Positions 59,158 through 63,837 of a stretch of DNA of 64,000 nt are shown here, piece by piece. Each line of letters opens with the position of its first letter. The stretch's first letter is position 1. Origin of the DNA: Candidatus Bathyarchaeota archaeon (GTDB lineage: Archaea > Thermoproteota > Bathyarchaeia > Bathyarchaeales > Bathycorpusculaceae); assembly GCA_963828195.1 (NCBI GenBank), contig CAWHDT010000003.1:256001-320000 (forward strand), in the 5' to 3' direction. The position numbers and the translations under genes are program-made. Under the pieces are notes generated by a model. That model was not told the origin of the DNA and did not search any database. It saw nothing but the letters and a program-made list of their open reading frames with translations.

Positions 59158-60552
59158 TTAAGCCGATTGCATCTTTTTGATTGGCAAATTTACTGTAAAT
59201 GTTGATCCCTTGCCGGGAATACTGTTGACGTCAATGATTCCACCATGTGCTTCCACAAAGCGTTTGCATATTGGCAGACCCAAACCCATTCCTTTTGCCT
59301 TCGTTGTGAAAAGCGGGGTCCAAAGTTTCTTCAAAGTATCCTCGCTCATTCCCTCACCTGTATCTGCAAAACTGAAGACTACACTGTTCTCGATGTTTTC
59401 ACTTTTGATTGTTAATGTTCCGCCTTTGGGCATGGCTTCGATGGCGTTTTTGATCAAGTTAACGAAAACTCTGTTTATCTTGTCTTTATCTACAGCGAAC
59501 TTCGGATCTTTTTTGGTTGTGTTCACAACGATGATGTTTTCGGGAACTGCAAGCAAAGTCAAGGTCTCTACCAAAAGCGAGTTTGGATCGGTTTCGCTCA
59601 GATTCAGATTTATTTCCTTGGAGTATTCAAGAAGGTCGCTTATTATTTTGTTTGAATTATTCACCGACTTCTCGATTGTTGCGATCATTTCTTTTTCTTT
59701 TTCGGTTAAGTCGGTTTTCTTTTTAAGATAATAGACGGCGCCAGCTATGCTAGTGAGCGGGTTCCTTAAATCATGTCCCACCATTCCTGCTAATTGCCCA
59801 ATGGTAGCCATTCTCTCTGATTTTCGCAGCTCCAGGGTCTTTTCCTCGACTGTCTTTTCTAAATTTTTCGAATGCTTCTCAAGTTCCTGTTGAAGTTCGA
59901 TGTTTTTTGTTAAGTCTTGAAAGCTTTTTCGGCGGTAGATCTGTAGTTGCCATGACCCTGATAAAGCAAGGACGTAGGCTAGAATTAAACCGAGGAATAC
60001 TGTGAAAATGATGGTTATGGAAGAAGGCTGCAGAACCCATATTACAATTGCGGCTTCACCTACCGCCGCGATTGATGCTAAGAAAATTTGGTTTATAAAC
60101 CGATTAGGAGTAACCATGCATACGACAAATAAGGCAATAATGGTTATTATGACCTGCGCAACAAAATTCTGCGGTCTCGTCGCATTTATGATTCCGCTAC
60201 AAATTAAAACGATCAGAGTATAAGCAGAAATTGATCTGTCGTACTTCCTAAAACTTGCCGTTTTCTCTATTTGGATAAACACCACAATAGTATATAATAA
60301 AACACCCAACCTGATTGCTACAAGGCCGTAGAATTCCTGGGATAATCCAAAAAACTGGTAATCATTAAAGGCAAAAGCAATCAAAGGAACCGTAAACAGC
60401 AATATGGCTATTCTAGCTTGCTTTATGTCTTTGCGAAGGTGAAATTCTCTATATTTATCCTCTTGGTCACCGGTCAACTCAAGCTGCGGTCTGCCGAACA
60501 TGTCTTGGATTTTCCCCAGCCCAGTCATATGTTCCTGCGCAATATTAATCAA
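59158..60552 (-). CDS. Membrane-bound sensor histidine kinase (about 6 TM)
   Basis: AGMVGHDLRNPL H-box; NLIKNA, DTGEG, FTTKAKGMGLGL boxes. Confidence 0.93.
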   Translation of the reverse strand: MINIAQEHMTGLGKIQDMFGRPQLELTGDQEDKYREFHLRKDIKQARIAILLFTVPLIAFAFNDYQFFGLSQEFYGLVAIRLGVLLYTIVVFIQIEKTASFRKYDRSISAYTLIVLICSGIINATRPQNFVAQVIITIIALFVVCMVTPNRFINQIFLASIAAVGEAAIVIWVLQPSSITIIFTVFLGLILAYVLALSGSWQLQIYRRKSFQDLTKNIELQQELEKHSKNLEKTVEEKTLELRKSERMATIGQLAGMVGHDLRNPLTSIAGAVYYLKKKTDLTEKEKEMIATIEKSVNNSNKIISDLLEYSKEINLNLSETDPNSLLVETLTLLAVPENIIVVNTTKKDPKFAVDKDKINRVFVNLIKNAIEAMPKGGTLTIKSENIENSVVFSFADTGEGMSEDTLKKLWTPLFTTKAKGMGLGLPICKRFVEAHGGIIDVNSIPGKGSTFTVNLPIKKMQSA

Positions 60553-60825
60553 TTACGTTAAAAAAATGCTTTACCTACATTGAATGCATTAATATTTCCA
60601 TTAAAACCGCACAGAAGAAAAAGAAATCTATAAAATCTATATAGTTGTTGATTTATTTTTTCGCTGTCCTTTAAGGTTTTTCTAGGTTAAATCTGAGCAG
60701 AATATGGGGTGCTAAATTTTAGGGATTTTCTTTCCAAACTTGCGGTGTTAATCGGAACTTTTTCCGAAATCTTAAACAGAATCGTTCCTGACTTAACATT
60801 ACAAATCAGTTCGAGGCATATTAGA

Positions 60826-61854
60826 ATGCGGATGATAAAGTGGTGCGACGGAACGGTCATTACAGTTGACCAGACCAAACTTCCCCTCCAAGAAGTCACT
60901 TTAGAAATCAAAACGGTTGAGCAGATGGCTGAAGCCATAAAAACCCTCCGCGTCAGAGGCGCCCCACTTTTGGGTGCAGCAGCCGCCTTCGGAGTTGCAT
61001 TAGCCGCTTACCACTCAAAAGCGCCGACCAAAGAAAAATTGCTATTTGAACTGGAGAACGCAGGCACGATAATTAAGCATCAGCGACCCACTGCGGTAAA
61101 CCTGTTTTGGGGCGTAGACCGGGTTCTGGATAGGGCACGTGGTTTTTCGGGAAATGTGGGCGAAATGAAAGTTTTGGTGGTTGAGGAGGCGCAGAAAATT
61201 GCGGATGAAGATGCATTGCAGAACCGCGCAATCGGCAAAAACGGCGCCGTGCTCATCGACGACGGCGACACCATTTTGACGCATTGCAACGCTGGCGAGT
61301 TGGCAACAGTCGAGTACGGCACTGCCTTGGGGGTTATCCGCGCCGCTTGGGAAGAGGGCAAAAAAGTCAAAGTTATCGCCGACGAAACTCGCCCGCTGCT
61401 TCAAGGTGCGAGGCTTACGGTTTATGAGCTGAAGCGCGATGGGATACCTGTCACTTTGATAACGGATAACATGGCGGGCTACGTCATGAGCAAGGGGCTT
61501 GTTGACAAGGTCATCGTAGGCGCCGACCGCATCGTCCAAGACGCCGTCGTTAACAAAATCGGCACTTACTCGGTAGCGGTGCTGGCACATGAGCACGGCA
61601 TACCGTTTTATGTTGCAGCGCCAAAATCCACCTTCGACCTGCAGCACAAAGCTTCTGACGTAATTATTGAGGAGCGCAGACCCGAAGAAGTCACCTGCAT
61701 CGGCTCAGTGCAAATTGCTCCTGAAGGCGTCAACGTTATGAACCCTGCCTTCGACATCACGCCGCTCAAATACGTGTCAGCAATCATATGTGAAACCCAA
61801 GTTTACTACAGCAAAGACTTCAGCAAATTCAAGAAAACGGCGTTAAATAAATAA
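60826..61854 (+). CDS. mtnA: S-methyl-5-thioribose-1-phosphate isomerase
   Basis: DQTKLP, VRGAP, RPTAVNL, THCNAGELAT..YGTALG, ETRPLLQGARLT, NPAFDITP. Confidence 0.93.
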   Translation: MRMIKWCDGTVITVDQTKLPLQEVTLEIKTVEQMAEAIKTLRVRGAPLLGAAAAFGVALAAYHSKAPTKEKLLFELENAGTIIKHQRPTAVNLFWGVDRVLDRARGFSGNVGEMKVLVVEEAQKIADEDALQNRAIGKNGAVLIDDGDTILTHCNAGELATVEYGTALGVIRAAWEEGKKVKVIADETRPLLQGARLTVYELKRDGIPVTLITDNMAGYVMSKGLVDKVIVGADRIVQDAVVNKIGTYSVAVLAHEHGIPFYVAAPKSTFDLQHKASDVIIEERRPEEVTCIGSVQIAPEGVNVMNPAFDITPLKYVSAIICETQVYYSKDFSKFKKTALNK

Positions 61855-61898: not shown

Positions 61899-63143
61899 TT
61901 AGTGTGTTTTGTACCTTAAGAGAGCGGCAAAACCGCTTAAAGCGGTAAGCTTTGCTTTTTCCTGTGACTCTGTAGATATGACTTCAACCAGCCCGTTTGT
62001 TTGCGCAGCCAAATCCTCTAAAACATCCACTATATCCTTCTCCTCCACCGAGTAATCAACGGCTTTGCATCTCTCGCATGGATGCGATATCATTTCTCGA
62101 ACAGCCTGAGCCTTCTCTTTCACATTTACTATGTTCGTCTTTGATAACTCGCATTTCTTGCACATTACAACGATTTCAATCATATCCGTTTTGTCTGTCA
62201 CCAAGGCAACTTCCACTTCGCCTTTTTCAAGTGCGTTCAAAACTGGATCTAACCCGTAAATAGCCAACCCATCAGGCTTGGCAGTTTCCGCCAAAAGACG
62301 CTGCACAACCAGCTTCTCCTCCGGCGCACACATATTGTTGATTGTTTCAGACGATTTAGCAAGCACCTCTCGTACGCCTTCTTTGCCCGCGGATTGGCTA
62401 TCAACTGTGCCTATTAGCGCATTTTTTAGTTCGCAATGGAGGTAATCGCCGCTTAAGAAATCCTCTTTGGTGTGGCCGGGTCCTCCAACTAGCAGCGCCG
62501 TGACTTTGTGGTTCTCAAGAAATTCTTTTGCTGCGTGCTCAGCAATCCTGTGGAAAAAGTATGTAACTTCCATGTCTCGTTCTCGCTCGTATCGTCTTTG
62601 GCTTGACCCGCCTTTTCCAGATTTTCCCGGAATCCCAGATGTAATGTTTTCAAGTAATTCAAGGCGTTCACCATTAAGTATCCCGAAGCTCGCCTCCTTT
62701 GAATCCAACGAGATAAGCCCCACAACATGCTGATTTCTCAGCATTTCCCTCAGCGGATCTAGATGGAAATGATTATCAACGTTGTAGAAGTAGGCGGTAA
62801 TCGGCTCTGGCGGAACAACTTCTTCAACGTGTAAAGCGTCGCTTTCCAACTCGTTCGCAGCGAAAGTTCCAGCAAATAAGGCAAGCCCGTTTCCCGGATT
62901 TTCCTTCTGCAGCTTTAGATGCTGGATCAGATTTTTGAGGCCTTCTTGTAGGCGGTTTTTCTCGCTTTCAGATTTCGCGGCGGCAGAGTCCGATTCACAC
63001 TTGAGAAATGCGGCCAGCTCATCCACTGATTTCTCCCGAGGAATATAGAGCGAGATGAACTCCATTCCCCGTCCCTCCTTATCAGACAGATACGCAATAA
63101 GCTTTCTGAGTTTATGCTGCTTCACTGAATTGCTGGTCGCCAT
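61899..63143 (-). CDS. Divergent paralogue of archaeal peptide chain release factor aRF1
   Basis: Three-domain eRF1/aRF1 layout (ISLYIP, NGLALFAG, PPEPI; PGKSGKGGSSQRRYERER, GGPGHTKEDF; YGL, Zn ribbon CKKC/CERC, GFAALLRY); GGGTG SD favours ATG 63143. Confidence 0.9.
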   Translation of the reverse strand: MATSNSVKQHKLRKLIAYLSDKEGRGMEFISLYIPREKSVDELAAFLKCESDSAAAKSESEKNRLQEGLKNLIQHLKLQKENPGNGLALFAGTFAANELESDALHVEEVVPPEPITAYFYNVDNHFHLDPLREMLRNQHVVGLISLDSKEASFGILNGERLELLENITSGIPGKSGKGGSSQRRYERERDMEVTYFFHRIAEHAAKEFLENHKVTALLVGGPGHTKEDFLSGDYLHCELKNALIGTVDSQSAGKEGVREVLAKSSETINNMCAPEEKLVVQRLLAETAKPDGLAIYGLDPVLNALEKGEVEVALVTDKTDMIEIVVMCKKCELSKTNIVNVKEKAQAVREMISHPCERCKAVDYSVEEKDIVDVLEDLAAQTNGLVEVISTESQEKAKLTALSGFAALLRYKTH

Positions 63144-63282
63144 CTGGCACCCGTGAAAATGCGCTAACTTTTCTGAAACCAAACTCTACACCTAATTATT
63201 AAACTACGTAGATACAAATTTATCAGTTTCTCAGAATTATAGCCAACCCGTATTGGTATCACGATGCGTTGGGACGAGCTGT

Positions 63283-63837
63283 TTACGTTCTTTGCATCAT
63301 TGGAAATTTGTAATTCGTTTTTTTGCCAATAAAGTAGCCAATGAAACCGCCTGTTATCCAAGAAAGAATAAGGGTGATTCCAGCAAAATAATCGGCAGTT
63401 AAGTCTGTCATCCCCCACCTAAACCCGCTTGCATTTGAAATCAACATAATTATAGCCCAAAAAGCAAAACCAAGTAGAGATGCTCCAACAATCACGTAAA
63501 TTTCTTTGCCAAGCTTAACTCCGCTTTTCCCAAACTTCTGTCTGTAGCTGTCTAATTCAAGTTCTGGGAAAGCAATCATTTCATCTAAAACAAAATGACC
63601 CTTATCCGTAAGTGAAAATTGTGAATCTGCTTGTTCAGATATTAAATGCTCTTCATCAATTGTTAATTTTTCAAGAGTGTTTAATTGATATGTAAGCTCT
63701 TGAGCGTCGTCAATCTTTAAATTAGTCATTAAATCGTCAAAAGTTAAATGTCCATGTTCGCCAAGTTGCAGTAATATTTTTTGGCGCAGAGGCTCTTTTA
63801 AAATTTCATGCAACTGAACAAGCTTTTCATCGTTCAT
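63283..63837 (-). CDS. Winged-helix protein with two C-terminal TM helices (membrane-tethered regulator candidate)
   Basis: HEILKEPLRQKILLQL..HGHLTFDDLM...L.YQL..L...FSLTDKG ArsR-like wHTH; two hydrophobic helices. Confidence 0.75.
   Translation of the reverse strand: MNDEKLVQLHEILKEPLRQKILLQLGEHGHLTFDDLMTNLKIDDAQELTYQLNTLEKLTIDEEHLISEQADSQFSLTDKGHFVLDEMIAFPELELDSYRQKFGKSGVKLGKEIYVIVGASLLGFAFWAIIMLISNASGFRWGMTDLTADYFAGITLILSWITGGFIGYFIGKKTNYKFPMMQRT

Follow-up and report, generated by a model that had tools for sequence, protein, structure and literature searches.

Release factors of the a/eRF1 type read the stop codon with their NIKS, YxCxxxF and GTS elements and trigger hydrolysis with their GGQ motif, and NIKS, YxCxxxF and GGQ are treated as universal in these proteins in the account given in PMC2613156. 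The two glycines of GGQ need torsion angles available only to glycine, and any mutation of them abolishes release, while the glutamine side chain has been given a packing role (PMC5799190). It is aEF1A that brings both aRF1 and Pelota to the ribosome (references cited in PMC10901736). Relatives that depart from this scheme have been described. Balon, a bacterial homologue of aeRF1, has neither NIKS nor GGQ and binds the A site independently of mRNA and together with EF-Tu (PMC10901736). The “potential archaeal Balon” proteins of Methanosarcinia, Syntropharchaeia and Thermoplasmatota (Nat Commun 2026; PMC13324472) were defined as aeRF1/Pelota homologues that lack NIKS and GGQ and form their own clade, in genomes that also carry aeRF1. 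For homologues without these motifs, a role in hibernation has been put forward both in bacteria, with Balon, and in other archaea (PMC10901736, PMC13324472). Two aRF1 copies are reported for 4.3% of archaeal genomes (n = 81), with a copy number that rises with genome size, and Methanosarcina is one of the holders (PNAS 2025; PMC12626013). In this study we analysed a stretch of 64,000 nucleotides from a Candidatus Bathyarchaeota archaeon (contig CAWHDT010000003.1, positions 256,001 to 320,000; “the window”), which carries on its minus strand, at 61899..63182, a complete gene for an aRF1 paralogue. The whole family of this paralogue has lost NIKS and YxCxxxF everywhere, and GGQ in most of its members, yet it stays under selection. 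The paralogue probably acts on ribosomes in a way other than normal termination, and its best reading, from its sequence, is that of a putative codon-independent A-site factor for either rescue release or hibernation.

The concept of such a factor is already known from Pelota, Balon, the “potential archaeal Balon” proteins and the second aRF1 of Methanosarcina. Compared with canonical aRF1 (TIGR03676; structures 4af1, 3agk and 3vmf), the paralogue has the same three-domain fold, is collinear over about 405 residues, and shares the GG loop with the Arg residues that follow it, the GGPG motif, the Zn ribbon and the C-terminal AALLRY. It differs from canonical aRF1 in that the GTS-loop Thr, NIKS with the Thr-Arg behind it and the YxCxxxF Cys are missing and the catalytic Gln is a Ser; moreover, it bears a 13-residue N-terminal extension with an invariant Cys, and it is accessory, fast-evolving and patchily distributed. 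Balon, with its relatives Rv2629 and Msmeg1130, resembles it in belonging to the aeRF1 superfamily, in having no motifs for decoding stop codons and in coming from hosts of stressful habitats. However, as described in PMC10901736, Balon has no GG loop and carries a lasso loop, a bL27 trap, an HP motif and a beta-hairpin insertion, whereas the paralogue keeps a GG-x loop of aRF1 length and shows no such insertions in its alignment to aRF1. With the “potential archaeal Balon” proteins, compared here by their description only, it shares the loss of NIKS, a clade of its own and a co-resident aRF1, but GGQ, lost in the window copy, is kept in basal members of its family; the passages of PMC13324472 that deal with these proteins name no Bathyarchaeia. 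The aRF1-2 of Methanosarcina, likewise compared by description only, is also a second aRF1 homologue beside an active omnipotent aRF1 (PMC12626013). Pelota differs in its Sm-like N domain and the absence of a GG loop, and the genome of the window has a separate Pelota gene. Both Pelota/Dom34 and ArfB/ICT1 act independently of the codon on stalled ribosomes and are in this sense functional analogues, although ArfB/ICT1 has a bacterial RF fold unrelated to the paralogue. ArfB and ICT1 keep GGQ without having decoding domains. The second aRF1 copy of M. barkeri was reportedly found inactive by Alkalaeva et al. in 2009.

A literature search found neither this Bathyarchaeia family, nor its passage from GGQ to GGS, nor its N-terminal extension described; the genes may already be listed in Table S9 of PMC12626013 and in the supplementary data for Fig. 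7 in PMC13324472.

Loss of the decoding elements throughout a clade of aRF1 paralogues

The genome assembly to which the window belongs (2.83 Mb, 9 contigs, 96% complete) encodes a canonical aRF1 (517 bits) with TASNIKS, YRCDSRF and AGGQS, a Pelota (260 bits) and a single aEF1A. The paralogue is 33% identical to this canonical aRF1, and its motifs were compared by alignment with it and with Halobacterium aRF1 (4af1). In the equivalent of the GTS loop (GRGMEF, residues 37-42, at 63057..63074, on the minus strand like all features of the gene), the canonical Thr has been replaced, KEGRGMEF standing against KEGSHTEL in the genome's own aRF1. The equivalent of NIKS (A-AKS, residues 68-71, 62970..62981) carries a deletion of one residue, SAA-AKS being aligned with TASNIKS, and the equivalent of YxCxxxF (YNVDNHF, residues 133-139, 62766..62786) has Val in place of the canonical Cys seen in YRCDSRF. 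The catalytic loop reads GKGGSSQRRYER, compared with KAGGQSSRRYER in the canonical protein; this GG-x loop is of canonical length and collinear with aRF1, and it forms part of the block K-G-G-S-S-Q-R-R-Y-E-R (residues 190-200, 62583..62615), which is supported by the family alignments and by matching DNA in other contigs. The CxxC...CxxC of the Zn-ribbon minidomain (62067..62162) is retained, with Cys341, 344, 369 and 372 invariant in the family alignment. The C-terminal SGFAALLRY (61911..61937) aligns as the counterpart of the GILRY/AAILRY region, which has been implicated in eRF3 binding (PMC2613156). Its conservation as GGFAALLRY or SGFAALLRY is a motif which by itself suggests that aEF1A may be bound.

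Profile searches assigned the protein to aRF1. TIGR03676 (aRF1_eRF1) scored 361.7 bits with a cut-off of 234.7, and the Pfam domains eRF1_1, eRF1_2 and eRF1_3 scored 40.2, 117 and 60.6 bits, all above their cut-offs, whereas the Pelota profile TIGR00111 (72.8 bits, cut-off 177.65) and the Balon/Rv2629 family NF052289 (29.6 bits, cut-off 320) remained below theirs. By sequence, the best solved relative was Halobacterium aRF1 4af1 (E 1.1e-52, collinear over residues 7-413 of a 414-residue query that started at the ATG at 63143), and a phmmer search of Protein Data Bank (PDB) chains with E <= 0.001 found no Balon chain. An AlphaFold model from a 93-row alignment (mean predicted local distance difference test score, pLDDT, 84.8), which supersedes a run on 31 family members (pLDDT 65.3), led Foldseek to aRF1 4af1 (E 1.9e-36), followed by Balon (Msmeg1130; 8.8e-20) and Pelota (9e-16). 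Prediction of a complex, made with the genome's own aEF1A and the paralogue alignment, gave a score of 0.01 (mark 0.32) and counts neither way.

A preliminary description, made from the DNA letters of the window, had proposed a second aRF1 that is blind to stop codons, full-length and composed of three domains, with the Zn ribbon and the C-terminal AALLRY region kept. The profile matches and alignments bear this out, and the four motif changes that it listed (GRGMEF, AAKS with a deletion, YNVDNHF and GKGGSSQRRYER) are all present. It had further called for a canonical NIKS/GGQ aRF1 and a Pelota in the same genome and for a conserved clade without NIKS, and had named, as observations that would speak against the idea, a sole aRF1 in the genome or motifs unique to this copy and evolving neutrally. 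Instead, the two other factors are encoded in the same genome, and the degenerate motifs are common to an entire conserved clade. The further parts of the proposal, namely delivery by aEF1A, an activity in rescue or hibernation and a role for a downstream Gln, are putative; the last of them is taken up below.

The extent of this clade was seen in two samples. In a large protein collection, 8000 candidates were scored, and 1051 of them were relatives at E <= 1e-20; the best 120 were 73-100% identical, and those of the 120 with names were annotated as “peptide chain release factor” from Bathyarchaeia. More than 120 distinct homologues lie at 73-82% identity. Species-representative genomes, when scanned, gave 123 loci, of which the 80 best were retained; at species level, the distinct homologues number 84. 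NIKS is found in 0 of these 84 members, the Cys of YxCxxxF likewise in 0 of 84, and no member retains any of the three decoding elements. When 63 family rows were contrasted with 30 canonical rows at positions with canonical conservation of at least 85%, the leading losses were T40 (GTS), I69 (NIKS), T74, R75, V78, C135 (YxCxxxF) and Q193 (GGQ). I69 is present in 100% of canonical aRF1 and is lost together with the following Thr-Arg; the NIKS-equivalent loop is hypervariable between family members. The Thr of the GTS loop (97% in canonical rows) is replaced by K, M, R and others, and the Cys of YxCxxxF (100% in canonical rows) by Val in 86% of the family. At the same time, the family has invariant residues of its own, many of them basic: C12, K21, A30, R145, G183, K190, Q195, Y198, Q263 and K409. 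Database entries name its members “peptide chain release factor aRF-1”; automatic annotation and surveys of aRF1 copy number will count such paralogues as release factors, which can mislead inferences about changes of the genetic code.

The catalytic loop and the history of position 193

The DNA at 62612-62601 is GGC GGG TCA AGC, just as it was first read. The caveat attached to that reading, namely that GGS might result from a paired-indel sequencing error, can be dismissed: contigs from the runs X2 (62576-62726) and X4 (62534-62712), which come from two different studies, one run possibly being the sample from which the window itself was obtained, agree with the window over 62601-62612, showing 0 differences and 0 gaps, and Ser occupies the position in 48 of the 80 species-level homologues. 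In those 48, the codons are TCA (28), TCG (16), TCC (2), TCT (1) and AGT (1). As five codons encode Ser193, Ser has been maintained through synonymous turnover.

Residues 190-200 (K-G-G-x-S-Q-R-R-Y-E-R) are invariant in the family except for x, position 193. Beside the 48 Ser, the species-level rows have 28 Gln, three Glu and one Ala; in a second set of 118 rows, which are the 12 commonest patterns of 122 rows (120 close homologues and the two genome copies), there are 54 Ser, 43 Gln (plus the canonical copy), 10 Glu, five Trp and five Met. All basal lineages on the tree of the 80 rows carry GGQ; judged from these sequences, GGQ is the ancestral state of the paralogue family and GGS a derived one. 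The change from Gln to Ser occurred at least twice on this tree, in one clade of 53 rows and in one of five rows, and within the large Ser clade there were returns to Gln (a clade of five rows and one further row) as well as changes to Glu (three rows) and Ala (one row), so that a minimum of six changes is needed at this position. It had also been suggested that the downstream Gln of GGSSQ might be used instead. Q195, however, is invariant whether residue 193 is Gln or Ser, and it is thus not a compensating replacement.

The Gln members nested in the Ser clade (L063, L114, L062, L076 and L078; 31 rows of the close-homologue set) read K-T-V-K-G-G-Q, compared with K-S-G-K-G-G-S in their relatives. 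The three adjacent loop differences look like a patch of recombination or gene conversion, rather than a point reversion.

Variation of the catalytic loop was also seen outside the family. In a library clustered at 50% identity, sporadic aRF1 homologues without the Gln have GGW (P0142, P0158, P0233, P0237 and P0251), GGF (P0176), GGM (P0249), GGA (P0246 and P0267), GGS (P0215) or GGE (P0157). Most of the homologues without the Gln keep NIKS and YxCxxxF; P0157, P0226, P0250 and P0253 are without NIKS. In addition, many archaeal canonical aRF1s of 500-1450 residues (P0125, P0126, P0131, P0133, P0135, P0146 and some 50 others) are interrupted by an insertion directly behind GGQ (query position about 180), which in P0125 and P0146 is an intein (Intein_splicing domain) within the catalytic loop of the release factor, accompanied in P0125 by LAGLIDADG and helix-turn-helix domains.

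Distribution, selection and origin of the family

Nearly all species-level loci come from metagenome-assembled genomes (MAGs) of Bathyarchaeota/Bathyarchaeia from peat, bog, palsa, permafrost and soil, and six MAGs have two paralogue copies. The sample from the window's order comprised 151 genomes. The paralogue (52-76% identity) is present in 13 of them, which belong to three families and tend to be larger genomes, and the others have the canonical type only (33-42%); in the window's own genus, 6 of 12 genomes hold the paralogue. Outside the order, no second copy of the paralogue kind was found among 201 genomes sampled from the class, in which one genome (G216) gave two canonical-like matches. 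An intact canonical aRF1 accompanies the paralogue in 11 of the 13 holders.

The ratio of non-synonymous to synonymous divergence (dN/dS), estimated by Nei-Gojobori counting in 18 pairs that are phylogenetically independent of each other (pooled dS 0.27), was 0.24 for the paralogue family overall, with 1157 synonymous differences and 1123 non-synonymous ones, the latter from about threefold more sites. By region, it was 0.33 in the N-terminal extension, 0.28 in the N domain, 0.19 in the M domain and 0.25 in the C domain; the purifying selection that the preliminary description had asked for (dN/dS < 1) is thus seen in every domain. The paralogue is under such selection and is, nonetheless, accessory. 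Full-length open reading frames (ORFs) of more than 400 codons are present in 77 of the 80 species-level loci, the other three being frameshifted (L120) or cut by contig ends (L138 and L140). Within genus g1, paralogues are 51-72% identical, compared with 83-94% for the canonical protein. Between families, however, the similarity of paralogues can exceed that of canonical aRF1s (75% against 61% for G000-G111), a pattern indicative of transfer or else of old subfamilies that were lost differentially.

The family is monophyletic, with 80 of 80 rows in one clade (support 98, and 100 in two further trees). Under a site-heterogeneous model, its sister group (support 99) consists of P0128 and four aRF1s of family f39, a family from another class of the same phylum. 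P0128 is 49-55% identical to the f39 proteins, and this type is a canonical aRF1 with GRGTEL, NIKSDT, CDDHF and GGQ. None of the 201 genomes sampled from the class yielded this type (49% identity at most); the Atlas cluster nearest to P0128 has Nitrososphaerota as its commonest taxon, which serves as a lead only. An approximately unbiased (AU) test rejected a clade of the family with the canonical aRF1 of Bathyarchaeia (p = 0.016), a group that was named after the first tree had been seen. A recent duplication of aRF1 within the Bathyarchaeia is disfavoured by both this test and the sister group. A FastTree analysis with Pelota as outgroup placed the family outside all aRF1; this was read as long-branch attraction and was not used. 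As the sister group is the aRF1 type of another class, transfer is suggested: on the simplest reading, the family was probably acquired from a P0128/f39-like lineage and then remodelled, although long-branch effects are possible.

Possible roles on the ribosome

We regard as the leading candidate, at somewhat under an even chance, an accessory factor derived from aRF1 that carries out codon-independent release or rescue on stalled ribosomes whose A site holds no stop codon, a functional analogue of bacterial ArfB/ICT1. Such a factor would be delivered to the ribosome by the genome's single aEF1A-GTP, as aRF1 and Pelota are; its remodelled N domain would dock in the decoding centre with no need for a stop codon, and its GG-x loop would be placed in the peptidyl-transferase centre (PTC). 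Members with the ancestral GGQ would be fully capable of hydrolysis; in those with the derived GGS, GGE, GGA, GGW or GGM, the window copy included, hydrolysis would be changed or weaker. Release or rescue is favoured because the catalytic loop is held more tightly than in canonical aRF1 and because Gln, and then Ser, has been selectively maintained. In addition, the two invariant glycines within a preserved loop are what a catalytic factor needs, whereas Pelota and Balon have discarded the loop.

Several observations weigh against a factor of this kind. The paralogue is about four times less constrained than canonical Bathyarchaeia aRF1 (dN/dS 0.24 against 0.064, the latter from three pairs with dS near 1), and its occurrence in just 13 of 151 genomes of the order makes it dispensable. 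Damaged copies exist, with two stops in G091, a deletion of 36 residues in the M domain in G128, and the frameshift in L120. Trp, Met or Glu in place of Gln193 is hard to square with efficient hydrolysis and fits a non-catalytic plug equally well or better. No conserved neighbour, which might have pointed to a pathway, was seen in the 13 loci compared, the paralogue itself being the only gene in common. Moreover, two holders do not show the expected intact canonical partner: G112 (94% complete, 40 contigs) has a paralogue of the GGQ form and Pelota, with no canonical aRF1 detected by TIGR03676 and TIGR00111, and the canonical aRF1 (L051, G126:C2:6651-7875) of G126, a genome of the same genus as the window's, has at least three frameshifts in its C-terminal third. 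The shifted frames in G126 keep the conserved residues, and the paralogue (GGQ form), Pelota and aEF1A are intact there; the breaks may be an assembly error or real decay. The same genome has a further aRF1-like copy with eight in-frame stops (G126:C5:532009-533232).

Some of these observations would be accommodated by a protein that occupies the A site and the PTC without hydrolysis, that is, a hibernation factor like Balon or a splitting adaptor like Pelota, acting independently of mRNA on idle or stalled ribosomes. It would keep the PTC inert and protect or recycle ribosomes under starvation, freezing or drying in soil and peat. This is a possibility that we hold to be doubtful, though a serious one. 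Precedents are provided by bacterial Balon, an aeRF1 homologue which likewise lacks NIKS and GGQ (PMC10901736), and, tentatively, by the “potential archaeal Balon” of Methanosarcinia and Thermoplasmatota (PMC13324472). In the derived clade, S, E, A, W, M and L are all accepted at position 193; the conserved basic residues gained by the family (K21, K24, R145, R149, K162, K190 and K409) would suit contacts with rRNA; and a search of the paralogue's own genome (96% complete) with PF02482 found no HPF/RaiA domain. The named holders are all MAGs from soil, peat, bog or permafrost, the sequencing runs that contain the gene are soil metagenomes, and a patchy, accessory and fast-evolving gene fits a stress factor. 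On the other hand, the GGQ loop lost in Balon and Pelota is here of canonical length with GG and its flanks invariant, the 22 basal rows, which span 51-60% identity, have all kept Gln, and selection maintains Ser as well. By sequence, the protein lies outside the Balon family (29.6 against 320 bits with NF052289), and a gene confined to 13 of the 151 genomes is not the general hibernation factor of the lineage.

The match above the TIGR03676 equivalog cut-off, the purifying selection on the N domain (0.28) and the presence of two aRF1 copies in Methanosarcina (PMC12626013) could also be explained by a release factor of altered or residual codon specificity, which would serve a subset of stop contexts or tune read-through as a competitor; the state of the canonical gene in G112 and G126, with the GGQ paralogue intact in the latter, could be cited in its favour. 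We consider this improbable, since none of the 84 members has kept any of the three decoding elements, and a hypervariable NIKS-equivalent loop is the opposite of a new, fixed specificity. G112 is 94% complete, and the breaks in G126 look like an assembly error, the residues being conserved in all frames. A link to pyrrolysine, once proposed for Methanosarcina, was rejected, as the PylS N-terminal domain and PylD gave no match in the paralogue's own genome (96% complete), where the PylS C-terminal domain had only weak, sub-threshold, synthetase-like matches. Still less credit is due to a slowly decaying or functionless duplicate or xenologue persisting by chance: the divergence within genus g1, faster than that of canonical aRF1, the three damaged copies and the patchy distribution would all be expected of it, but 77 full-length frames in 80 loci, a dN/dS of 0.24, and residues, an N-terminal extension, a TTG start and a Shine-Dalgarno sequence that are conserved in the family make it very improbable.

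It is conceivable, if rather unlikely, that the paralogue represents an undescribed class of archaeal ribosome-associated factor, a transferred and codon-blind aRF1 whose GG loop would reach the PTC and in which the change from the universally conserved catalytic Gln to Ser would have been selected in a large soil and peat clade of Bathyarchaeia. The Ser forms would then alter PTC chemistry, holding peptidyl-tRNA inert or releasing it with a different preference for the nucleophile, and the invariant Cys12 could be a sensor or an additional contact in the decoding centre. Were this the case, the A-site factors of archaea would number three, with aRF1 and Pelota as the other two, and the family would be a natural experiment on the role of the GGQ glutamine. 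Whichever role applies, the family offers tractable pairs, GGQ against GGS forms and a codon-reading against a codon-blind copy from one genome, for work on the rescue or silencing of archaeal ribosomes, and the GGQ/GGS pair also probes the contribution of the catalytic glutamine.

Gene neighbourhood, gene start and N-terminal extension

The paralogue is flanked by a convergent gene for methylthioribose-1-phosphate isomerase (60709-61854, plus strand; IF-2B family, 306 bits) and by a small winged-helix/transmembrane ORF (63283-63837). Beyond the isomerase gene lies an ORF for a protein resembling a membrane histidine kinase (59158-60552, minus strand, 464 residues, called from its translation). 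Neither the kinase-like ORF nor the isomerase gene is conserved beside the paralogue in the other loci, and a conserved operon partner was rejected, as the neighbours differ in all 13 loci. A defence system was also rejected, with 0 PADLOC families, and so was a virus-borne gene, the one weak partial match to a viral contig (41% identity, residues 132-314) lying outside the paralogue family. The sequencing runs carrying the sequence yielded DNA contigs of soil metagenomes only (shares 0.12-0.44), with no RNA run among them. Elsewhere in the genome there is a fourth gene of the aeRF1 superfamily, P0004 (G000:C5:123548-124309; L008:1492-2304, minus strand). It encodes a Pelota-like protein of 270 residues, without an N domain and without a PADLOC match, which matches the M and C domains of Pelota only (TIGR00111, 43.9 bits, profile positions 112-348; eRF1_3, 23 bits).

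The gene comprises 427 codons with the stop codon at 61899-61901, as indicated by the ORF list, the Pfam and NCBIfam matches and a conserved start column. The preliminary description had begun the protein at the ATG at 63143, but the start is the TTG at 63182, 39 nucleotides (13 codons) further upstream. In 84 of 91 homologous loci, the aligned column holds a start codon (TTG 72, ATG 8, GTG 4), whereas the Met encoded at 63143 is replaced by Ile or Leu in many homologues. Six nucleotides before the TTG, a Shine-Dalgarno-like AGGTG can be read from the sequence (63189..63193), and AGGTG or GAGGT is found 5-8 nucleotides 5' of the aligned start in most of the 14 paralogue loci compared.

The corrected start adds the 13-residue extension MVSEKLAHFHGCQ (63144..63182), which family alignments show to be specific to the family and canonical aRF1 to be without. 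Its peptide pattern, x-E-K-[VI]-x-H-F-[HY]-[GA]-C-[QH], is conserved across the family, with Cys12 invariant and Phe9 92% conserved, and the AlphaFold model gives it, with low to moderate confidence, a short strand at residues 5-9 and a helix at 11-14. Among the canonical aRF1 genes of the genus (L042-L060 and L001), the start codon nearest to the aligned start is likewise TTG or GTG, and not ATG, in 16 of the 17 listed.

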